Sequence record: OR449013
Strand: one strand, 5' to 3'
DNA length: 64,000 nucleotides
Source of the DNA: Escherichia phage Mangalyan
The notes under the pieces are model-generated. The model saw only the letters and a list, made by a program, of their open reading frames with translations. It was not told where the DNA came from and searched no databases. Within the stretch, counting starts at the first letter, position 1. Every line of letters starts with the position of its first letter. A program made the position numbers and the translations under genes. Shown piece after piece: positions 18,012-60,471 of this stretch.

Positions 18012-18242
18012 ATGAGCCATAACTCCAAGTGGAAGGATCTTGGTTTTGCAAGTCGGGCAGAGTATGTTGGTTGGCTTTGGTTCAACGGCCTGACAAACGA
18101 TATTAAAATGTATGATGATGTTTATTATGACGAGTATACAGGTAAAATTATAAATATCTCTGTAGAAGAGGATACCTTTATCCAGCAAGATACTGATACC
18201 TGCCTTGATAAATACGTTAATGAAGTGGAGGAAGCAAATTGA
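18012..18242 (+). CDS. hypothetical protein (76 aa)
   Basis: ATG 18012 after AGGTGGTGAAG; ORF-track start 17934 would overlap upstream gene. Confidence 0.45.
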   Translation: MSHNSKWKDLGFASRAEYVGWLWFNGLTNDIKMYDDVYYDEYTGKIINISVEEDTFIQQDTDTCLDKYVNEVEEAN

Positions 18243-20554
18243 TCACCAAGGTAATTAAAAGCAACGGATGTGAGGTAGCATTCGATCCAGAACGTTTAAA
18301 TAAGGCAGCTATTTTCGGTGACGACGGTAACGGCAATTGGTCACATATTGCACTGGATGCATACAAACGACTGTATGATGGATGTACAACCAAAGAAGTT
18401 AACCAAGCTATCATAGACTCCTGTGTTAGCCGTAAAGACGAAGCACATTCCCGTATGGCTGGTCGTGTTCTTATTGGTCAGATTTATAAAGAGGCTTTTG
18501 GAGGGTTTACAAAGATCCCTTCCTTACCATCATTTTACAATACCATGGTTGAGAAAGGGTATTGGGAGGATATGGGCTATAGCTTTACCGAGCTAAACAC
18601 TTTAGACGCTGTTATTGACCACAGTAAAGATCTCGGTTATGGCTATGCAGTCCTTAAACAGTTTCGCGACAAATACGGGATCAAGGATACTCTTAAAGAC
18701 ACCTTGTTTGAATCTCCCCAGATGATGTTTATGGGGATAGCAATGGCTGTCATGAAGAATATGCCGAAAGAACGTCGTATCAACGATGTTGTAAAATTAT
18801 ACACTTATCTGTCCGACTTAAAGATCAATGCCCCGACACCGTACTTAAACGGGCTGCGCACAGGTAAGACAGGGTATGCATCTTGTTGTGTAATAAAAGC
18901 TGACGATACAGCAAAATCTATTGGTGTGGCACGTGAAGTTGCGTACACAATGACGGTTAACCAAGCAGGTATCGGCTACTATTTATCATCAAGATCTGCA
19001 GGCGATGGTGTTCGTGGTAACACTATTAAACACATGGGTAAGATTCCATATTATCGAGGTATTGATGCTGGGGTTAAGGAGAACAGACAACAATCACGTG
19101 GCGGTTCTGCAACAGTATCATTTCTTGCACTAGACCCGCAGATTGATGAGCTAATCCGTTTGAGAAACCCTATGACTGTTGCTTCAAAAAGAATCAACAC
19201 CATGGACTACTCCATCGGTATTAATAGGTCGTTTATCAACCGTGTGGCTAAGAATTTGGATTGGATGCTTGTTTCTTATAAGCACGCGCCTCAACTGCAT
19301 GAGGGTATCTTCACCATGTCTATGGAGGAGTTTGATGCAGAGGTTGATCGTATTGCTAAAGATGACAGTATTCCTAAAACATGGATCCGGGCCAGAGATC
19401 TTGCTGTTGAACTGATCACGCAGCGTACTGAGGTGGGAAGGCTGTATGTATACTGGACAGATGAGATGAATAGACATACACCTTTTAAAGATGTGATCTA
19501 TTCAAGTAACCTGTGTGCAGAAATAGCCCTCCCGACAAAAGGCTATTCAGATATGCGTAATATCTTCAAGTACGATGCTGATGATGGAGAGGTTGCATTG
19601 TGCTTCCTGTCATCTCTTGTAGCTGGGAGGGTTACTCCAGAGGAGTATGAGGATGTTGCATACTATACGGTGCTTATGATTGACAATGTTATGGAAATCA
19701 TGACATATCCGTATGAAAATATGGAAAGCACAGTTAAAAAACGCAGATCCATCGGGGTTGGCCTTACCAATGTTGCACATTTTATTGCCAGCCACAAGGT
19801 TACTTACGGATCTCCTGAAAGTAAACAGCTCGTTCACGATCTTGCAGAACTTCACAGCTACAGCTTGCATAAGGCAAGTTTACGGTTGGCAAAAGAGCGT
19901 GGTGTCTGCGAGTGGATGCATAAAACAAAATATCCAGAAGGTTGGTTACCAATCGACACCTATAACAAAGAGGTCGATAGCGTGGTGAAAGATCCTTCTC
20001 TTAAACAGGATTGGGAAGGGTTACGTAAAGAAATCATTGAAAATGGTGGGCTACGTAATAGCGTTCTTGAAGCATATATGCCTAATGAAAGCTCTTCGCT
20101 GGCAACAAACACCACTAACGGGGTCTATCCTGTCCGTGAGCACATTATCTTTAAAAAGTCGCCACAAGGGCAGGTGCTGTTTATCGTTCCTGACTATGAT
20201 GAGTTGAAAGAGTATTACACTTCGGCTTGGGACGTTGATACTAACGACATGATCGATATGTATGCTGTGATTCAAAAATTCACAGGTCAGGCAATCAGCG
20301 CGGATTTGTACATAGACTACACCAAGTTGAAAGATGGTAAAATTTCAATGAAGGAGCAGCTAGGGTACCTTATCCGTGCCACTAAATTCGGAATGAAGAC
20401 ATGGTATTATTTAAACTCTAGGGTTGGTGCTGGCGACTCCTTGGCAGAGGAACTTCATGCCAAGAAACAGGCTGAAGATGAAACCAGAAAGAACTATCCT
20501 TTGAATGCAGATAGTTCAGTTGAAGATCAGTATTGCGAAAGTTGTGCACTATAA
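18239..20554 (+). CDS. nrdA: ribonucleotide reductase class I large subunit NrdA
   Basis: N-terminal ATP-cone (VIKSNGCEVAFDPERL), active-site NLCAEIALPT, C-terminal CESCAL cysteine pair; 771 aa. Confidence 0.9.
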   Translation: MITKVIKSNGCEVAFDPERLNKAAIFGDDGNGNWSHIALDAYKRLYDGCTTKEVNQAIIDSCVSRKDEAHSRMAGRVLIGQIYKEAFGGFTKIPSLPSFYNTMVEKGYWEDMGYSFTELNTLDAVIDHSKDLGYGYAVLKQFRDKYGIKDTLKDTLFESPQMMFMGIAMAVMKNMPKERRINDVVKLYTYLSDLKINAPTPYLNGLRTGKTGYASCCVIKADDTAKSIGVAREVAYTMTVNQAGIGYYLSSRSAGDGVRGNTIKHMGKIPYYRGIDAGVKENRQQSRGGSATVSFLALDPQIDELIRLRNPMTVASKRINTMDYSIGINRSFINRVAKNLDWMLVSYKHAPQLHEGIFTMSMEEFDAEVDRIAKDDSIPKTWIRARDLAVELITQRTEVGRLYVYWTDEMNRHTPFKDVIYSSNLCAEIALPTKGYSDMRNIFKYDADDGEVALCFLSSLVAGRVTPEEYEDVAYYTVLMIDNVMEIMTYPYENMESTVKKRRSIGVGLTNVAHFIASHKVTYGSPESKQLVHDLAELHSYSLHKASLRLAKERGVCEWMHKTKYPEGWLPIDTYNKEVDSVVKDPSLKQDWEGLRKEIIENGGLRNSVLEAYMPNESSSLATNTTNGVYPVREHIIFKKSPQGQVLFIVPDYDELKEYYTSAWDVDTNDMIDMYAVIQKFTGQAISADLYIDYTKLKDGKISMKEQLGYLIRATKFGMKTWYYLNSRVGAGDSLAEELHAKKQAEDETRKNYPLNADSSVEDQYCESCAL

Positions 20555-20593: not shown

Positions 20594-21682
20594 ATGGCTG
20601 TATTTAATGCTGAGAACACCGCTCATAAAACTGGTGACTATCCGCTGTTTCTAGGACAGCAAATGGGTATGTACGACTCTATCAACAAAAAATATCCACA
20701 ACTGTTTGAACTATACAAAAAACAAAAAGAACAAGACTGGGCAGAGGATGAAGTGGATTTGTCGCAATCTATTTCAGATTTTGTAACATGCTCAAAGTCA
20801 ACTTATGACGTGATGGTGCAGACCTTGATGTGGCAATGGGAGGCTGATAGCGTTGCGGCAAGATCTATCATTTGTCTGTTTTCACCATTTATCACCAATA
20901 GTGAGCTTTTCACTCTATTGATGAAACAGTCAGAGATTGAAGTTCTTCACGCACTAACTTACTCAGAGATTGTTAGACAATGCCTCCCCAATGCCCGTGA
21001 GATTATAGAAGAGATTCAGGAAAACCAAAACGTTCTGAGCAGATCCGGCGTTATTGTCAAATACATGCAAGAGCTTGAGGTTATTGGTGCAAAATACCGA
21101 CTGGATCCTTCTAGTGTTGAAGAAGATGTTGTGCGGAAATGCATTCTTAGAGCGCTTTTTGCACTTTTAGCTCTGGAAAGTATTGAGTTTATTGCAAGTT
21201 TTGCATGCACTTTCGCAGTAGCTGAGCAGGGTATCTTTGTTCAGGTGGCGCAGCTTGTTCAAAAAATCATGCTTGACGAAATGCTACATTCGAAAGGTGA
21301 TTTTGCCATCATTGATATCCTGCTTAATGATCCCGCATGGGAGAAAAGCTTCCTTGAGATAAAAGGGGAGTTAAAAGAGATTCTTGATGAAGTACGAACC
21401 AAAGAGTACGGTTGGAGTGACTATATTTTCAGCGAAGGAAGAGCGATTATAGGTCTTAACTCACCGTTGCTTAAAGAATGGGTTGACTATAACTGCTCAC
21501 CGATTTATGATTACTACGACATCGACAAAGACTTTGTGCCGCCAACAAAGGACCCTCTACCGTTTATGCAGGTGTGGATGAAACCTTCATTGCAACAGAC
21601 GGCGAACCAAGAAATGTCGAACACTGACTACCGCGTCAACACAACTGTTAACGACGCTGAAGAAGAAATTTGGGAGTTTTAA
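20594..21682 (+). CDS. nrdB: ribonucleotide reductase class I small subunit NrdB
   Basis: SFACTFAVAE block as in E. coli NrdB (SFACSFAFAE), acidic C-terminal tail; follows nrdA. Confidence 0.85.
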   Translation: MAVFNAENTAHKTGDYPLFLGQQMGMYDSINKKYPQLFELYKKQKEQDWAEDEVDLSQSISDFVTCSKSTYDVMVQTLMWQWEADSVAARSIICLFSPFITNSELFTLLMKQSEIEVLHALTYSEIVRQCLPNAREIIEEIQENQNVLSRSGVIVKYMQELEVIGAKYRLDPSSVEEDVVRKCILRALFALLALESIEFIASFACTFAVAEQGIFVQVAQLVQKIMLDEMLHSKGDFAIIDILLNDPAWEKSFLEIKGELKEILDEVRTKEYGWSDYIFSEGRAIIGLNSPLLKEWVDYNCSPIYDYYDIDKDFVPPTKDPLPFMQVWMKPSLQQTANQEMSNTDYRVNTTVNDAEEEIWEF

Positions 21683-21685
21683 TAC

Positions 21686-21964
21686 ATGAGCTGTGAAAAA
21701 TCTTTTTTCTTTATTATTTACGGTAAAGATAACTGCCCACATTGTGTAAGAGCAAAAGAATTTGCAGTCAGTAAGGGTCTGCCTTTTGTATATAAGACAC
21801 TTGGCGAGGGTTACACAAAAGAAGAGCTTATTGAGAAGTGCAGTCCAATCGTACCCAGAACGTTGCCGCAGATCTTCTTAGAAAGTAATCTTGAAAGTGT
21901 CCATATAGGCGGTGCCGACGATTTCATCTCTTTTGTTAAGAATGGTTTTGGAGAGAAAAAGTGA
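21686..21964 (+). CDS. glutaredoxin-like redoxin (RNR electron donor)
   Basis: CPHC active-site motif near N-terminus; 92 aa; between nrdB and nrdD. Confidence 0.75.
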   Translation: MSCEKSFFFIIYGKDNCPHCVRAKEFAVSKGLPFVYKTLGEGYTKEELIEKCSPIVPRTLPQIFLESNLESVHIGGADDFISFVKNGFGEKK

Positions 21965-22821
21965 AAGTTGTAAAACGGGACGGTAGAGAAGAGGTCTATA
22001 ACGGAATTAAGGTGATCAAGGCGGCAGAGTCCGCCTTACTTGAGTCTGGACATACTGAAGAAGAAGCTTACCGGATCGCCTGCGCGGTTAATGAAGTTGT
22101 TGCTAACACTCTACCAACCGACCAGTGCACGATCTCTGTAAAAAATATCCATATCCTTGTTGAAGACGCTCTTATGGATATGGGTTTAAAATGTGCAGCC
22201 AGAGAATACATCCAGTATAGGCAGACAAGAGATAATAATAGAGAGGCAGGTGGAAAACTGCTTGCAGATATTAGTGGCTTCTTGGATCGCACTTGTGATG
22301 AATTTACAAAAGAAAACGCAAATAAGCCTACCAATCATGTACACACTCATCGTGACCTGCTTGCAGGCATCCTTAGCAAACACCTTGCATCAACACAGAT
22401 CCTGCCAGACCGTGTCTCAGAAGAGCACAATAGAGGCTTCATCCATGTGCATGATCTTGACTACTTGATCAGTCCGTTAACAAACTGTTGTTTGGTAAAT
22501 TATCCAGATATGTTGGAAAACGGATTCAACATTGGTAACGCCCATGTCAGTAAGCCGAAGTCAATAGGGGTTGCAACAACAATCCTTAGCCAAATCTCTA
22601 GTGCAGTAGCTAGTGCTCAATATGGTGGTCAGACTATGAGCCATATTGATCATTATCTGGCACAGTATGCTGAAGCGACCTATGAGAAGAACCTTAAATT
22701 TTGCCAGGAACATTGGTTGCCAGATGCTGAGACTGTTGCAATGCAAATGACAGATAAAGACGTATTTGACAGCATGCAGACTTTGCTCTATCAAATCAAT
22801 ACGTTAACTTCTGTCAACGGT
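21961..22821 (+). CDS. nrdD: anaerobic ribonucleotide reductase NrdD, exon 1
   Basis: GTG start overlapping upstream stop; ATP-cone MKVVKRDGREEVYN; reading frame hits TAA at 22822 exactly where a P1 helix and intron core begin. Confidence 0.8.
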
Positions 22822-23618
22822 TAACAAACTGGCCGTTGTAAAACTCTCCTAACCTCATAAGAGGGGTCGGTAAATCCGGCTAACGGGGAACGCTAAGGCG
22901 AAAGCTATGCCAATCCCGTGACTAGTTCTTACAGGAGTTGGAACGGTTGTAACGACTAACGAAAGGCAGAGATGCTTGACAAACATTTCTGAACCAAGTA
23001 GTGTAGGGGTTAGTTGAAATACTAACTTCGAAATGGAGAGGCTCTATGAAAAAGATCATTCTTAATGGTGAAGAATCAAACTATGTGATTGATGAGGTTG
23101 GAAACGTATACGGAAAACGTGGAATGCTACACCCAATATTGTGGGGAGGTTATGGAAAAGGTAAAAAGCATGTTAAACGCCGTTATATGTACTCTTTCAA
23201 CCACAAAGGTAAAAAGATTCGAATCCAAACCTCAAGGATTGTTGCCTTGTATTGTTTGCCGGATGTCCCAGAAGACCCTGAAAACTGGGAAGTGAATCAT
23301 AAAGATGGCAATACATTGAATGATCATCCGTCTAACCTAGAGTGGGTTTTGCCGGAAGATAATAAGAGACATGCTTTCCGAACAGGACTTTGTCCAGGTA
23401 AGTGCTATAGGAAAGTGCAGGCATACAAAGGGAAAACCTTGGTGGGTGAATATCCTTCACTCTATGCCTGTGCAAAAGCCTTAAATTTGAACGTAGGTAA
23501 CGTTCATAGGGCTATCGAAGGAAATGCCGAAGGTAAGCATCTCACAATAAAGGGTTATTATCTTATTGAAGTAGAGTAAGAGATAGTCTGGCCCTGTGGA
23601 AACACAGGGAGGAGACAG
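22822..23618 (+). mobile_element. group I intron (IA-like) interrupting nrdD, carrying an HNH homing endonuclease ORF
   Basis: P1: exon CAACGGU (22815-22821) pairs perfectly with intron GCCGUUG (22832-22838), U-G at splice site; core-like AACGGGGAAC and CAATCCCGTG; omega G at 23618 restores frame ...SVNG|QTPFITLSLGLDTS. Confidence 0.8.
23046..23579 (+). CDS. HNH homing endonuclease (intron-encoded)
   Basis: HNH_3-like EVNHKDGNTLNDHPSNLEWVLPEDNKRHA; strong RBS GGAGAGG before ATG; located inside the intron. Confidence 0.75.
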   Translation: MKKIILNGEESNYVIDEVGNVYGKRGMLHPILWGGYGKGKKHVKRRYMYSFNHKGKKIRIQTSRIVALYCLPDVPEDPENWEVNHKDGNTLNDHPSNLEWVLPEDNKRHAFRTGLCPGKCYRKVQAYKGKTLVGEYPSLYACAKALNLNVGNVHRAIEGNAEGKHLTIKGYYLIEVE

Positions 23619-24881
23619 CAGACTCCATTCATCACATTGAGTTTAGGACTGGATACCTCGGTCTTTGGTAGAATGATTACCAAAAACTACTTGAAAGTCC
23701 ACAAAATGGGTCTTGGTGAAGAACGTATTACACCTGTATTCCCTAAAGTGCTGTTCTTCCTGGAAGAGGGTGTTAACATGAACCCTGGGGATCCTAACTA
23801 TGATTTGAAACGATTAGCTCTGGAATGCTGTGCAGAACGTATCTACCCTGACTTCGTATCTGTACCACTAAATAGAAAAGTGACAGGCTCGACAGATGGC
23901 AAAGTAACGAGCATGGGTTGCCGGAGTTTTCTTAGCAAATATAATGACTTGGAAACAGGTGAGGAAAAATACCTTGGCAGATTCAACTTGGGTGTTGTTA
24001 GCCTTAACCTGCCAATGATTGCGGCAAAAGCTAAGACGGAAGGTGTTGATTTCTTTGCAGTTCTTGACGAATACTTGGATCTTGCATACGAGGCTCACCT
24101 TGTAAGGGTTAACCGTCTAAAAGGAACAAAGGCAGGGCAGAACCCCATCATGTGGTGTGAAGGCGCTCTTGCTCGCCTGGATCCTGAAGAAAGTATTGAT
24201 AAACTCTTCTATGACGGGTACGCTTCCATCAGCATTGGGTATATTGGTGTGTATGAAACCTGTCAGATTTTGGGCAGAGAGGGTGACAAGGCTTTAGCTC
24301 TTGGAATCCTTCAGCACATGAGAGATGCTTGTGAGCGATACAAGAAGGAAAGTAGACTAGCGTTTAGCTTGTACGGCACCCCTTCTGAGAGTCTATGCTA
24401 TAAAGCTGCAACCTGTCTGGATCGTGAATATCCTGAAGTGTTGAAGCACGAGCATGAATATCTCACCAACAGTTTCCATCAGCCAGTATGGATCAATAGC
24501 TCTCCTTTTGATAAGTGGGCGTATGAGGAAGGTTTTGCTATGATCTCCTCTGGTGGCAACATCGGATATGTAGAGACACCGAATCTGAAAAACAACTTAG
24601 ATGCTTTAGAGGCTCTTGTTGACTTCGGGTATAAACACATTATGTATTTTGGTATTAACCAACCTGTGGATAAATGTCTCAAGTGTGGTTTCTCTGGGGA
24701 GTTCAGTGCAACAGCTAAAGGCTTTGTATGCCCAGAGTGTGGAAACCATGAAGAGGGAACGATCAGTGTGATCAGACGTGTGTCTGGATACCTTTCCAGT
24801 CCTAACTCCCGTCCTTATAATAAAGGTAAGCAAGCGGAAGTTATCGAGCGAGTTAAGCACTATGGAAGTTGTAGTTGCTGA
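23619..24881 (+). CDS. nrdD: anaerobic ribonucleotide reductase NrdD, exon 2
   Basis: glycyl-radical motif RRVSGYL near C-terminus, zinc ribbon CLKCG ... CPECG; frame open from 23580; 5' boundary set by inferred 3' splice site. Confidence 0.8.
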   Translation, partial: QTPFITLSLGLDTSVFGRMITKNYLKVHKMGLGEERITPVFPKVLFFLEEGVNMNPGDPNYDLKRLALECCAERIYPDFVSVPLNRKVTGSTDGKVTSMGCRSFLSKYNDLETGEEKYLGRFNLGVVSLNLPMIAAKAKTEGVDFFAVLDEYLDLAYEAHLVRVNRLKGTKAGQNPIMWCEGALARLDPEESIDKLFYDGYASISIGYIGVYETCQILGREGDKALALGILQHMRDACERYKKESRLAFSLYGTPSESLCYKAATCLDREYPEVLKHEHEYLTNSFHQPVWINSSPFDKWAYEEGFAMISSGGNIGYVETPNLKNNLDALEALVDFGYKHIMYFGINQPVDKCLKCGFSGEFSATAKGFVCPECGNHEEGTISVIRRVSGYLSSPNSRPYNKGKQAEVIERVKHYGSCSC

Positions 24882-24945
24882 TACTTGACAAAAGCCACAA
24901 GGATGTGGCACCATACAGATGTTTAGGGAAGTTAGGAAACAAGAG

Positions 24946-26079
24946 ATGGCTAAATTATCGACAGAAGAGTTTATAGAGAAGGCGAAAATCATTCACGGTT
25001 ATAAATACAATTACAAGAAAACAGTGTACGTGGATTGCTATGCGAAGGTTTGCATTACCTGTCAAATCCATGGAGATTTTATGCAAGCACCTTGTCAACA
25101 CTTGCAAGGTCGTGGTTGTCCTTTTTGTGCAAAACTTTCTCGTGCTACAAAGTGTAATAAAGGTCTTAAATTTGTAGAAAGAGCCAAAGAAATCCATGGA
25201 GATAACTATGACTACTCTCTCGTATACTACAAGACTTGCAAAGATAAAGTAGAAATAATCTGCAATACTTGTGGAAATCACTTTACACAGACACCTGACA
25301 ATCATATAAATTTGAAAAGAGGTTGTCCAGTTTGCAAGGGGTCAAGAATCTCACAAAGCAAAACCAAACCTCATGAAAAGTGGGTTGAGGACATAGAGAA
25401 GAAAAATACTTATATTGAAATATTAGAAGAGATCACCACTGGGTGGAATAAAGTATTATGTCGTTGCAAAGTTTGCAACCACGAATGGTCAGCTACGCCT
25501 GTTATCCTTAAGCGTGGTCACGGCTGCCCCGGATGTGGCGGATCTATGAAAAAGACCACTGAAGAGTTTATCCAGGACGCTGTGGCTATCCACGGGAACA
25601 AGTATGATTACTCTAAAGTGAGGTATGTGAATTCACACATCAAGGTTACAATTGTTTGCACAGATCATGGAGATTTCTGTCAATCCCCTACCCAGCATTT
25701 AGGAGGGGGAGGGTGTCCTAAATGCACCAAAAGAGGATTTTTATCCCACGATTGTGGTAAACTTTACATTATGGTTGATGATCCGGAAGTGCCTACATTT
25801 ATGAAAATAGGTGTCAGTCATAATGAAAGTAAGCGAAGAGACCAGATACTTAAAAGTGCACAAAGATCTGGAGCTGGTATCTGCGATCTGTACATAGTGA
25901 AAACGTTGGAAGGATCAACTGAAAACATGCTGGCTGTAGAAAAATCTATGCACAAAGCCTTCAGTAAATATAAAATAAACTTCCCTGTAAAATTTGATGG
26001 TAGCACCGAATTCTTCTACTACAGGCCTGAGGTGTTCAGCACAGTGGAAGCAGCGTACAAAGAGATCTGCGGTAAATGA
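24946..26079 (+). CDS. GIY-YIG-like (T5orf172-type) domain protein with four N-terminal zinc-ribbon repeats; putative free-standing homing endonuclease
   Basis: four repeats of H-G-x-x-Y-x-Y ... I-x-C ... HG-x-F ... GCP-x-C; C-terminal LYIMVDDPEVPTFMKIGVS ... RR ... E resembles GIY-(10)-YIG spacing. Confidence 0.6.
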   Translation: MAKLSTEEFIEKAKIIHGYKYNYKKTVYVDCYAKVCITCQIHGDFMQAPCQHLQGRGCPFCAKLSRATKCNKGLKFVERAKEIHGDNYDYSLVYYKTCKDKVEIICNTCGNHFTQTPDNHINLKRGCPVCKGSRISQSKTKPHEKWVEDIEKKNTYIEILEEITTGWNKVLCRCKVCNHEWSATPVILKRGHGCPGCGGSMKKTTEEFIQDAVAIHGNKYDYSKVRYVNSHIKVTIVCTDHGDFCQSPTQHLGGGGCPKCTKRGFLSHDCGKLYIMVDDPEVPTFMKIGVSHNESKRRDQILKSAQRSGAGICDLYIVKTLEGSTENMLAVEKSMHKAFSKYKINFPVKFDGSTEFFYYRPEVFSTVEAAYKEICGK

Positions 26080-26131
26080 TCGTAGAAAGATACACATATC
26101 TTAAACATGCTATAAACTAAGGAGGTACAGT

Positions 26132-26248
26132 ATGTCTACAGGCATTTATAAAATTTGCAAGTGTGGTTGTCGTTGCAATCTTCGTTGGTGCAAGGCACTG
26201 GACGATTTTATTTGGCATTGTCCTGAATGCGATGCAGAGTACTTATAA
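26132..26248 (+). CDS. small Cys-rich protein (38 aa), zinc-ribbon-like
   Basis: below ORF-track cutoff; ATG 8 nt after TAAGGAGGT; MSTGIYKICKCGCRCNLRWCKALDDFIWHCPECDAEYL. Confidence 0.55.
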   Translation: MSTGIYKICKCGCRCNLRWCKALDDFIWHCPECDAEYL

Positions 26249-26263
26249 GCATAAGGGGTCGAA

Positions 26264-26368
26264 ATGCGGAAATCTATCAAGAAAATCAAGATAAAATTGT
26301 TAGCACTGAAGCGTAAGTATAAAAAGTTATACGGCTTCATCAAATGGACTTTTATAAGTTTATCTTGA
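26264..26368 (+). CDS. small basic protein (34 aa)
   Basis: below ORF-track cutoff; ATG after AAGGGG; Lys-rich. Confidence 0.35.
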   Translation: MRKSIKKIKIKLLALKRKYKKLYGFIKWTFISLS

Positions 26369-26399
26369 ATAGAAGCACACCACAGAAGAGAGGTTCCTT

Positions 26400-26636
26400 A
26401 TGGTAGGTGTCTGTGTAAAAGCTAACAGATGGTTTACATTCGGCAAGGATTACGAAATTATCTTTCATTCGGACAGAGCCACAACAGTAGAAAGCGATGA
26501 TGGGTGCTACTGGTTCGTTAGTTACCAGGGTGATGGGTATTATAGATCTACTGATTCCAGAGGGGAAGAAGCTGTTTTCTTAGATAGAGCTTATTGTGGG
26601 CCTGAATATCCCTACCTCAAAGAGGGTAAGGAATGA
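26400..26636 (+). CDS. hypothetical protein (78 aa)
   Basis: ATG after AGAGAGG; overlaps nrdG start by 4 nt. Confidence 0.5.
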   Translation: MVGVCVKANRWFTFGKDYEIIFHSDRATTVESDDGCYWFVSYQGDGYYRSTDSRGEEAVFLDRAYCGPEYPYLKEGKE

Positions 26637-27106
26637 ATGTTGTTAATATTATAGAGTGTAGCATGGTTGACGGCCCAGGCATTAGGACAACGGTGTTCTG
26701 TTCTGGTTGTCCACATCACTGCGTTGGTTGCCAAAACAAAAGTGTTTGGTCACCCGCTAAAGGGGAACCGTTAACAAATGACACAATTGAGAGTATACTT
26801 CACTCTATAGAGCCGAAACATATTACTGGCGTTACATTATGCGGTGGCGAACCTTTAGCGCCTTACAATATCGATGGTATGTACTCGATCATTCTCGCTA
26901 TCCGTGAACGCTTCGGCAACACAAAAACTATCTGGGTGTACACAGGGTATTTGTTTGAAGAAGTCCCAGGTTATATTAAAGATAGTGTCGATTACATTAT
27001 GGATGGTAAGTACGAAAAAGATAACCCCACCAAAAAACCATTCAGAGGTAGTGATAACCAAAGAATGTTTAAAAAAGTATCAGGCGGTTGGGTTCAGGTA
27101 GACTAG
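26633..27106 (+). CDS. nrdG: anaerobic ribonucleotide reductase activating protein NrdG (radical SAM)
   Basis: Cys cluster FCSGCPHHCVGCQN (C-x3-C-x2-C) near N-terminus, GGEP motif; 157 aa. Confidence 0.85.
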   Translation: MNVVNIIECSMVDGPGIRTTVFCSGCPHHCVGCQNKSVWSPAKGEPLTNDTIESILHSIEPKHITGVTLCGGEPLAPYNIDGMYSIILAIRERFGNTKTIWVYTGYLFEEVPGYIKDSVDYIMDGKYEKDNPTKKPFRGSDNQRMFKKVSGGWVQVD

Positions 27107-27669: not shown

Positions 27670-28458
27670 ATGGGTCGAGCTAAAGAAACAAAACGCATGC
27701 GTGATGAAGCTAGAGAGGCTCGCAAATCTGATCGCCTGCGCAAGGCTGCTGAGAAATTTGCTGACGAAAGAGAGCACACCGCTCCAGCTCTCCGACCAAT
27801 GAATAAGAAGCAGCAAAAGTATCTTGATTATCTAGGGTCACGTAAGATTATCATTGTAAACGGTGTGTTTGGATCCGGTAAGACATTCATGGCATCTGCA
27901 TATGCAGGTGATCTTCTGCGTAAGAACGAGATTGATAAGATCATTGTTGCACGTCCTTACGTTCAGACAGGAAAGACTTCAGGATTTAAACCTGGAAATG
28001 CAATGCAGAAACTGTGGCCCTATCTTCGAAGCATGATGGACACGATTTGTCGTCGTGTTGGCAAAGGTGCTTTTGCCGCAATGCTGGGAGACGGTCAGAA
28101 CAGTCGTATCGAGATTTGTGAAGTTGAAAGCATTCGTGGTCGTAGTTTCGATGAGCGATGCTTTGTCCTGATTGACGAGGCACAGCAAACTAACCCTGAA
28201 GAAATGTTGTCAATTATCACAAGGATCTCTGATCAGGCCACCCTTGTAATCATGGGCGATAATAGCCAACGTGACATCCCTGGTAAATCTGGACTTGCAT
28301 GGGTGACGGATTTCTTTACTCGTCATCCAGATCCTGAGGTTGGAATGATCAGCTTTGATAGTCCAGACGATGTCGTTCGTTCCGGATTGGGTCGTCAGAT
28401 TGCACTCAATCTTATTGAGGATCGTGCAAATCATATTTGGACCCCTGTTTCCGAGTAA
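27670..28458 (+). CDS. phoH: PhoH-like ATPase
   Basis: Walker A GVFGSGKT, Walker B-like VLIDEAQ, PhoH-type GDNSQRD; 262 aa. Confidence 0.85.
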   Translation: MGRAKETKRMRDEAREARKSDRLRKAAEKFADEREHTAPALRPMNKKQQKYLDYLGSRKIIIVNGVFGSGKTFMASAYAGDLLRKNEIDKIIVARPYVQTGKTSGFKPGNAMQKLWPYLRSMMDTICRRVGKGAFAAMLGDGQNSRIEICEVESIRGRSFDERCFVLIDEAQQTNPEEMLSIITRISDQATLVIMGDNSQRDIPGKSGLAWVTDFFTRHPDPEVGMISFDSPDDVVRSGLGRQIALNLIEDRANHIWTPVSE

Positions 28459-59847: not shown

Positions 59848-60471
59848 CTAAAAGTATTCATAGAGGTATCCATCGGGGGCTGGAATTTTTTCATGAATGT
59901 AGTAATCAACACATATTCCGGTTTCTCTTCTACAAGAATTGTGGGATACCCATTCTTTAAGAACGTTTCCATTCATGTCCAGCCTTCTTACATTTTTACA
60001 CCGTCTACCGCTGGTGCTTCTATGCAACAGAATATCCTCCGTCTGCTTGTCTTTATTTTCTCCCCAGGTCGTTAAACGGATATTATCAAAAGAGTACCCT
60101 TTGAAATCATCTATCCTGTCACAAGAAGGCTTTTTCCTTTTGTCGTATCCGCTGGCTACCCACTGATCATACAACTCTTTGTAACCGTTCAGGTATAGCC
60201 ACTCCTTAAACTCTTTTTTGGTGTAAGTCGGAGGAGGGTGGCCTCTTTGCTTGCTGTTGCACTTTTGAGCCTTGTACAGCACGCGTATTACACCTTTTTC
60301 TGAAGAGTCGTGGGAAAACCTGTCAGCCTCCCTGCTGGCCTTCTTGCAACACTCTTTGCACTTATTAAGATGACCGTCAGACATCTTTGGGTGTTTGTAG
60401 AACTCGGAGAGGTTTTTCACCTCTCCGCACTTGATGCACCTCTTACAATGCGTGGATTCTGCTTTTTCCAT
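59848..60471 (-). CDS. HNH-type homing endonuclease-like protein (free-standing)
   Basis: N-terminal zinc ribbon CKRCIKCG ... CKEC and [28 protein letters not shown]-like core; start placed at MEKAE (ATG 60471); overlaps 3' end of upstream gene. Confidence 0.55.

Follow-up and report, generated by a model that had tools for sequence, protein, structure and literature searches.

Two putative selfish elements in the nrdD region of Escherichia phage Mangalyan: a group I intron with an HNH open reading frame and a T5orf172 gene with four predicted zinc modules

We analyzed a stretch of 64,000 nucleotides (nt) from Escherichia phage Mangalyan (sequence record OR449013), referred to as the window herein, and found that its nrdD region most probably carries two independent selfish elements, a reading to which we give a probability of roughly 80%. 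The first is a group I intron in nrdD with an HNH open reading frame (ORF), and the second is a free-standing gene for a putative T5orf172 homing endonuclease in the spacer after nrdD. The initial annotation of the window had proposed a homing-endonuclease hotspot at this ribonucleotide reductase (RNR) locus, and comparison of the locus bore this out: relatives carry the HNH intron, an ORF-less version of it, a second HNH intron (in phages JEP1 and navn), and many T5orf172 alleles in one spacer. Both checks proposed at that stage were run; the hidden Markov model search returned a nuclease-family match (T5orf172), and the comparison of relatives revealed a clear presence/absence polymorphism. 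Elements of this kind, with this architecture and at such a location, have already been described (PMC10448857). What is new here is a series of module arrays at one site in one phage genus, together with a four-module mosaic allele.

The window phage belongs to Vequintavirus (the rV5-like coliphages). When 5.3 kb spanning the locus were used as a query, 121 phage records matched, nearly all of them Vequintavirus, with Escherichia phage WalterGehring as the best match (96%). On the plus strand, the order of the locus is nrdA, nrdB, grx, nrdD exon 1, the intron with the HNH ORF, nrdD exon 2, the T5orf172 ORF, small ORFs, nrdG, and phoH (Table 1).

In rV5, nrdD is uninterrupted, and blastn placed window positions 21900-22820 and 23618-24910 on adjacent rV5 bases. 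Joining 21961-22821 to 23619-24881 yields a frame of 708 codons (707 amino acids (aa) and a stop), with 701 of the 708 positions identical to rV5 NrdD. The junctions show the features of a group I intron, namely U22821 before the 5′ splice site, the terminal G23618, and a P1 helix with an internal guide sequence. In this helix, the exon end CAACGGU (22815-22821) pairs with the guide GCCGUUG (22832-22838) over 7 base pairs (bp), with a U-G pair at the splice site; a conserved AAGAGAUAGUC element is found near the 3′ end of the intron. At this position, nrdD of phage nom carries an ORF-less intron of 257 nt (L005 1950-2206). The two introns have the 5′ 141 nt and the 3′ 40 nt in common, and P1 of the nom intron carries a compensatory change from C-G to A-U (exon AAACGGU, guide GCCGUUU). 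The ORF of the window intron, whose stop codon overlaps the beginning of the 3′ intron core, passed the cut-off of Pfam HNH_3 (29.3 bits, E 6.8e-7; cut-off 24.8) and also matched an I-HmuI NUMOD-like region (1.6e-3) and the HNH endonucleases of phrog_59 (8.8e-27). It is intron-borne, as had been noted at first, but it lies inside nrdD and not between nrdD and nrdG. By this comparison nrdD is split by a group I intron with an HNH ORF, and splicing that restores NrdD is predicted. The full intron was found at ≥97% identity in 27 of the 121 related records, and just its first 140 nt in 16 more.

As in the T4 nrdD (sunY) intron, a group I intron interrupts a phage nrdD here, and the HNH_3 and I-HmuI NUMOD-like domains of its ORF liken it to I-HmuI-type HNH enzymes. 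I-TevII, the product of the T4 nrdD intron, is a GIY-YIG enzyme, whereas the window intron ORF is of the HNH type. Separately, nrdD of JEP1 (L006 1993-2742) and of navn (L008 1778-2527) is interrupted by a second group I intron, which lies ∼220 nt beyond the first and corresponds to about window position 23840 in exon 2; it carries a different HNH ORF of 169 aa, and the window is without it.

The gene in the spacer after nrdD is open from 24946 to 26079 with 377 codons and a stop, so the coordinates first given for it stand, but its reported length of 378 aa counts the stop. An in-frame ATG further upstream at 24919 would yield 386 aa and is the start used in the WalterGehring annotation. The likely start is 24946, which has AGGA 8-11 nt upstream and is where a 99%-identical public protein (P0001, 377 aa) and the nom annotation begin. 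Residue numbers for repeats and nuclease motifs refer to the 386-aa version throughout. The product matched Pfam DUF4379 (E 2.2e-12) and T5orf172 (E 3e-5), both over their cut-offs, as well as phrog_681 "endonuclease" (4e-73), and it has 1877 homologues at E ≤0.001. An AlphaFold2 model built from 39 homologues (mean predicted local distance difference test score, pLDDT, 88.6) consists of four small similar units followed by an alpha/beta domain. A PDB sequence search with the whole protein gave nothing usable (a single match at E 0.1), NCBIfam gave no family for it, and tblastn of the three nuclease proteins against the window returned no further paralogues. PADLOC returned a weak PDC-S57 match alone (E 2e-3), and a defence-system reading of the gene was dropped for that reason.

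The gene is contained in an inserted cassette of 1204 nt, which stands in for 16 nt of the rV5 spacer and is flanked by a conserved hairpin on one side and, on the other, by the ribosome-binding site of the small gene that follows. The spacer is short, the insertion is clean, and neither neighbor is damaged. A gene 70-74% identical in nucleotide sequence to the 3′ half of 24946-26079, annotated as a zinc-ribbon protein, was also found in the lambdoid coliphages mEp021 (MH706966 7753-8549) and mEp013 (PP180002), which suggests that the cassette may have been exchanged between unrelated phage groups.

Upstream of the nuclease domain, the protein is composed of four modules, R1 to R4, each of which ends in G-C-P-x-C. 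Every module has a C-x2-C or C-x2-H pair and then C-P-x-C (residues 45/67, 115/136, 183/203, and 247/266). We defined type A modules by the H-G-x-x-Y-x-Y pattern, which is DUF723-like, and type B modules as DUF4379/CapR-like, so that the window array reads A-A-B-A. Pairwise local alignments among R1, R2, and R4 scored 17-33 standard deviations (SD) over shuffled sequences, and none of 1000 shuffles reached these scores. R3 is divergent (z 5.4 to R1, 7.8 to R2, and 2.4 to R4) and is without H-G-x-x-Y-x-Y and HG-x-F. Of the four tandem repeats initially described, all four are thus present as modules, but the exact pattern given for them fits only three. The DUF4379 match (47.4 bits, cut-off 24.5, whole protein) has its best stretch in R3, at residues 177-208. 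In the AlphaFold2 model each of the four units folds as a helix, a beta-hairpin, and a short helix, and the top Foldseek match is the DUF4379 protein 6yxx_E2 (E 2.3e-4). These results support the assignment of the ORF as a T5orf172 protein with four predicted zinc-binding modules. Such a four-fold module had first been called unusual, which it is not: CapR/DUF723/DUF4379 zinc fingers are found in 200 of 229 T5orf172 homing endonucleases, many of which have several (Barth, Dunham & Seed 2023, PMC10448857), and the homologues in phages ECML-10 and SophiaRose also have four modules.

The GIY-YIG resemblance noticed at the C terminus was upheld by Pfam T5orf172 (PF10544), which aligned to residues 282-372 over profile positions 3-92 of 101 at 24.9 bits (cut-off 20), and by the phrog_681 match; the related MUG113 model scored 21.5 bits, just below its cut-off of 22.3. 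The modelled domain has the GIY-YIG alpha/beta fold at pLDDT >90, and its best structural matches are GIY-YIG nucleases. The tyrosine of the first motif (G-I-Y) is present as L-Y283-I on the first strand. It is followed by K296-I-G298, by R306 and E341 (VEKSMH) on the first and second helices of the model, and by H345 and E364 (STEFF). Y283, K296, G298, R306, E341, and E364 are invariant in the 39 homologues, down to 33% identity. The catalytic arginine and glutamate of I-TevI are R27 and E75. Like I-TevI and the T-even GIY-YIG enzymes, the window protein is built as modular beads on a string including a zinc finger and has its home in a phage nucleotide-metabolism gene. Unlike I-TevI, it has its nuclease domain at the C terminus, so that the domain order is reversed, its motif is K-I-G and not Y-I-G, and its gene is free-standing and not intron-encoded. 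I-TevI binds DNA through one zinc finger, a helix, and a helix-turn-helix, whereas DNA binding by the window protein would come from four tandem zinc modules.

The one T5orf172 enzyme for which we found biochemical data is Odn (gp88) of phage ICP1, which cuts DNA in vitro and loses cleavage upon the substitution E180A (PMC8263062). The window protein resembles Odn in its T5orf172 domain, where the K-[IV]-G, Arg, and Glu-x3-His motifs of the two align, and E341 falls opposite Odn E180 in a weak alignment (25% identity over 56 residues, BLASTP E 0.006, hhalign E 3e-4 with a probability of 41%). E364 was also considered as the catalytic glutamate and was set aside, as the Odn alignment points to E341. 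The two proteins differ in that Odn binds DNA through a RepA_N domain and is directed at the replication origin of a satellite, whereas the window protein is without RepA_N.

The intron and the T5orf172 gene occur independently of each other among relatives. Neither is present in rV5, while Phage 203, FFH2, and EmilHeitz have the HNH intron without a T5orf172 gene after nrdD. phiWec189 has an nrdD without intron and a T5orf172 gene at the same site, nom has the ORF-less intron together with the gene, and both the HNH intron and the gene are found in the window phage, WalterGehring, JEP1, and nomine. Considered by site, the spacer is empty in rV5, Phage 203, FFH2, and EmilHeitz and filled in WalterGehring, nom, JEP1, nomine, navn, ECML-10, phiWec189, and SophiaRose. 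This pattern, as read from the genomes compared, fits mobile homing endonuclease genes. A close version of the window allele was present in just 3 of the 121 related records, against 27 for the window intron. In the phage collection, no record covered ≥80% of the window cassette (the closest were nom, WalterGehring, and JEP1), and an IMG/VR scan with NrdG returned just two or three close relatives. The authors of the BASEL collection had labelled the WalterGehring homologue bas51_0186 (MZ501111) a "putative homing endonuclease" and had already joined the two nrdD exons in their annotation. In ECML-10 an intact homologue of ∼376 aa with four modules lies at the same site (L009 ∼1438-2565), unannotated in the GenBank record. 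navn has a further T5orf172 gene just after phoH (L008 6589-7518; 309 aa, three zinc modules), which places the family at several sites in Vequintavirus genomes.

At least six module arrays are found at this one Vequintavirus spacer, all on a related T5orf172 domain. Besides A-A-B-A in the window, these are A-A-B in WalterGehring, nom, nomine, and navn, A-B-A in JEP1, A-B-B-B in ECML-10, A-A-A in phiWec189, and probably A-A-A-A in SophiaRose, whose second module was left untyped by the automatic classifier and was assigned to type A by eye. The alleles of WalterGehring (bas51_0186) and nom (nom_106) share the insertion site and the flanking genes of the window gene, and over R1-R2 and the nuclease core they are 93-98% identical to it in nucleotide sequence. 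The nrdD intron of the window, HNH ORF included, is likewise present in WalterGehring, in contrast to nom with its ORF-less intron. The two alleles differ from the window allele in having three modules (A-A-B) with no R4, a diverged R3 (59-75%), and a diverged C-terminal tail.

When identity was followed along the window allele, four segments with alternating closest relatives appeared (Table 1). The R1 segment is 95-98% identical in nucleotides to WalterGehring/nom and R2 is of the WalterGehring/nom type. R3 is 92-97% identical to the JEP1 allele and 59-75% to WalterGehring/nom, and R4 is found in JEP1 and is absent from the WalterGehring/nom alleles. The window four-module gene is best read, from these identities, as a recombinant of two three-module alleles, those of WalterGehring/nom and JEP1, or as their common source.

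The flanks of the cassette are mosaic as well. Over the last 300 nt of nrdD, identity among the compared phages ranges from 98% down to 80% and falls near the cassette. A densely polymorphic patch in this part of nrdD (24722-24780) occurs in two very unlike forms in phages that share ∼95% identity elsewhere, and the difference alters amino acids of the NrdD zinc ribbon. The alternative allele was found in 36 records, which include every matched nomine/JEP1-type carrier; 15 of these 36 have no match to the window endonuclease gene, SophiaRose showing a weak match. The patch may represent a target allele that resists the enzyme, or else a scar of co-conversion. As a simple explanation of the target or immunity site of the window allele it was rejected: the window phage and WalterGehring carry the gene with the rV5-type patch, while nom carries a near-identical gene with the other patch, and the patch therefore cannot be the immunity determinant of the former two. 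It remains a candidate for the nomine-type alleles.

Taken together, these observations suggest how the two elements would work. RNA splicing of the intron would restore an intact NrdD, and in a mixed infection the intron HNH enzyme would cut or nick an intron-less nrdD, the intron being copied in during repair. For the free-standing gene, the four zinc modules (A-A-B-A) would bind an extended asymmetric DNA site, and the C-terminal T5orf172 domain with its GIY-YIG fold would cleave near the bound site. Upon co-infection with an empty-spacer relative, the enzyme may cut near the 3′ end of nrdD or in the spacer, and recombinational repair from the carrier genome would copy the cassette along with flanking markers. 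The carrier could be immune through the replacement of 16 nt of the spacer, through nearby substitutions, or through both.

Several points weigh against this reading. Cleavage, a target site, and homing of the window protein and its close relatives, and likewise current mobility and DNA binding by the modules, are what we infer from sequence. The second-motif (Y-I-G) tyrosine is replaced by lysine (M-K296-I-G298), a departure from the classical motif, and the alignment to Odn is weak by both BLASTP (E 0.006) and hhalign (41%). The patch at 24722-24780 does not track the window allele. No promoter-like site stands out directly upstream of the 24946 gene, a promoter/terminator scan yielded no more sites than shuffled sequence did, and expression of the gene is presumed. 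Lastly, Rfam RF00028 scored the window intron at 27.7 bits (E 5e-4), under the gathering score of 50, with an alignment that lies partly over ORF sequence; the ORF-less nom intron scored 29.3 bits and the second JEP1 intron 32.9 bits. We attribute the low score to the 534-nt ORF, which splits the intron core in a way that the model is unable to bridge. Since the score is sub-threshold and partly on the ORF, our intron call rests on exon collinearity, P1, and the comparison with the ORF-less intron.

An improbable alternative is that the gene is a domesticated relative of homing endonucleases that serves the phage, as a nuclease against competing phages or satellites (like ICP1 Odn) or as an interference weapon, and is kept for that benefit. 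T5orf172 nucleases are known to be co-opted, as Odn cleaves the PLE satellite origin (PMC8263062), and putative E. coli satellites have been linked to T5orf172 proteins (Barth et al., PMC10448857). The intact catalytic residues and the homologous zinc-ribbon gene in the lambdoid phage mEp021 would also agree with a domesticated nuclease. However, most close relatives are without the gene, and the very spacer in which it lies is a site of alternative alleles, which is the classic pattern of homing genes. Moreover, Pfam found no RepA_N or other borrowed specificity domain, and the sole PADLOC match was the weak one to PDC-S57 (E 2e-3). The domesticated and homing roles are not mutually exclusive, as homing itself works by cutting a competitor genome.

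Slightly less probable still is that the protein is an inactive or DNA-binding-only remnant, either a CapR-like repressor or an nrd regulator, with a nuclease domain that no longer cuts. CapR is a domesticated zinc-finger DNA-binding protein of this lineage (PMC10448857), homing endonuclease genes commonly decay once fixed, and K-I-G departs from the canonical Y-I-G. Against decay, the reading frame is uninterrupted, and the Tyr, Arg, and Glu that are presumed catalytic do not vary among the 39 homologues, even at 33% identity. Identity to the WalterGehring/nom alleles is 93-100% over the nuclease-domain segment, and the model of this domain shows a GIY-YIG fold at pLDDT >90. As K296 is invariant, K-I-G is the norm of the family, the usual form in this T5orf172 subgroup and not a lesion. 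Finally, chance resemblance of the repeats and of the GIY-YIG core in an unrelated cysteine-rich protein, which could have drawn on the commonness of short C-x2-C motifs and the modest T5orf172 score (24.9 bits), is already refuted by the R1/R2/R4 scores of 17-33 SD over shuffles, the DUF4379 (E 2e-12) and phrog_681 (4e-73) matches with 1877 homologues, and the GIY-YIG nucleases that were the best structural matches.

The closest precedent for the free-standing gene comes from ICP1 gp174 and its relatives (PMC10448857), which likewise join an N-terminal string of zinc fingers to a C-terminal T5orf172 domain, adjoin RNR genes, change their module number by in-frame repeat recombination, swap domains, and sit at the boundaries of genetic exchange. 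gp174 itself lost repeats by in-frame deletion, domains have been swapped between T5orf172 genes, and 33% of the T5orf172 gene neighborhoods surveyed contain a ribonucleotide reductase gene (PMC10448857). The ICP1 genes belong to Vibrio phages, whereas the window element is found in an E. coli Vequintavirus and is known from its sequence alone. Further differences are that the window protein does not reach Pfam CapR at E <0.1, though homologues do, that at least six arrays share one site here, and that the window allele is a four-segment mosaic of two others.

That phage RNR genes draw homing endonucleases and that T5orf172 enzymes carry strings of zinc fingers is known, and the window is a clean example. 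Its modest added value is comparative, as many sequenced coliphages with ∼95% identity differ at this one site in the module array joined to the same nuclease, and the window allele is best read as a recombinant. With E. coli K-12 hosts and the BASEL phages, this is a tractable system for how zinc modules set specificity, how new specificities arise, and how homing genes shape local mosaicism. We tentatively propose, at clearly less than even odds, that the spacer after nrdD is a natural retargeting workshop, where recombination between alleles keeps fitting an unchanging T5orf172 nuclease with new strings of three or four modules; the A-A-B-A allele of the window would be a recent product of this process. 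Provided that each module recognizes a few bp, the alleles and the linked flank polymorphisms, the nrdD patch at 24722-24780 among them, could reveal a recognition code of DUF723/DUF4379 modules, and an arms race between cutters and resistant target alleles could come to light in the same comparison if the proposal is true. In practical terms, nrdD of these phages should be joined across the intron in annotation, and phylogenies should avoid the nrdD-nrdG region.

Table 1. Features of the nrdD region and of the separate nuclease-like gene, in window coordinates.
Feature	Coordinates	Strand	Basis or remarks
nrdA	18239-20554	+	
nrdB	20594-21682	+	
Glutaredoxin (grx)	21686-21964	+	
nrdD exon 1	21961-22821	+	ATP-cone and N-terminal NrdD, last base U22821; Pfam NRDD 2.6e-41, ATP-cone; collinear with uninterrupted rV5 nrdD
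Group I intron	22822-23618	+	797 nt; 5′ core 22822-22960, 3′ core ∼23578-23618; last base G23618 = omega-G
Putative intron-encoded HNH homing endonuclease	23046-23579	+	177 aa, I-HmuI-like, in peripheral part of intron; Pfam HNH_3, phrog_59
nrdD exon 2	23619-24881	+	Glycyl-radical domain, C-terminal zinc ribbon; Pfam NRDD 4e-107, Gly_radical 5e-23; rV5-collinear
Densely polymorphic patch, ∼60 nt	24722-24780	+	3′ end of nrdD (C-terminal zinc-ribbon coding), 130-190 nt upstream of cassette; nine-phage alignment
Mosaic segment 1	24881-25351		Closest WalterGehring/nom, 96-97% nt identity
Conserved hairpin	24894-24909		GCCACAAGGATGTGGC, right after nrdD stop codon; cassette begins immediately 3′
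Inserted cassette	24911-26114	+	1204 nt, each boundary ambiguous by 1-2 nt; blastn vs rV5, Phage 203, FFH2, junctions inspected
Putative free-standing T5orf172 (GIY-YIG superfamily) homing endonuclease gene	24946-26079	+	377 aa; Pfam DUF4379, T5orf172, phrog_681
Predicted zinc module R1, type A	24955-25137	+	Residues 13-73; HGxxYxY ... C-x2-C ... HGDF ... GCPFC
Predicted zinc module R2, type A	25156-25344	+	Residues 80-142
Mosaic segment 2	25352-25771		Closest JEP1, 92-98%; WalterGehring/nom 59-75% or absent
Predicted zinc module R3, type B (DUF4379/CapR-like)	25366-25545	+	Residues 150-209; C-x-C-K-x-C-x-H-x-W ... GCPGC
Predicted zinc module R4, type A	25552-25737	+	Residues 212-273; ligands C-x2-H ... 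C-P-x-C
T5orf172 / GIY-YIG-fold nuclease domain	25738-26076	+	
Mosaic segment 3	25772-26011		Closest WalterGehring/nom, 93-100%
Mosaic segment 4	26012-26115		Closest JEP1, 97%
Small ORFs	between 26079 and 26633	+	
Cysteine-rich 38-aa ORF downstream of cassette	26132-26248	+	Its ribosome-binding site = right edge of insertion
nrdG, right neighbor of locus	26633-27106	+	NrdD-activating radical-SAM enzyme; Pfam Fer4_12 2e-37, Radical_SAM 8e-9
phoH	27670-28458	+	
Putative nuclease gene	59848-60471	-	Unlinked, 34 kb from RNR locus; phrog_1035

The last gene in Table 1 had been listed at first as a third HNH gene. It is nuclease-like and patchy in distribution, but no Pfam family matched it at E ≤0.01, it lies 34 kb away, and its best profile was phrog_1035 "endonuclease VII" (1e-40), with HNH phrogs weaker (2e-4). 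Of 116 related records, 50 have the ORF and many of the others cleanly lack it, and its homologues are annotated as "putative homing endonuclease" (including those of BASEL phages) or "endonuclease VII". It is probably, to judge from this distribution, a third mobile nuclease gene outside the RNR locus.

Downstream of the cassette, the 38-aa ORF is rich in cysteine (MSTGIYKICKCGCRCN...CPEC) and has a strong ribosome-binding site. It is kept with or without the endonuclease gene and is labelled "hypothetical protein" in WalterGehring, FFH2, and Phage 203. The following segment (26253-26632), which includes an ORF at 26400-26636 (phrog_3249), is absent from FFH2, nom, JEP1, and navn, where nrdG comes directly after the 38-aa ORF, so that the locus has a second polymorphism of the presence/absence type. 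The 5′ two thirds of FFH2 nrdG have, moreover, diverged too far to be aligned. The rV5 label "putative minor capsid protein" for the phrog_3249 ORF looks unfounded. Lastly, ∼19 "Campylobacter phage" records (MG0656xx; A135, A147, C2, D1, and others), labelled as Campylobacter jejuni phages, are 92-96% identical at this E. coli Vequintavirus locus, and their host label looks doubtful.

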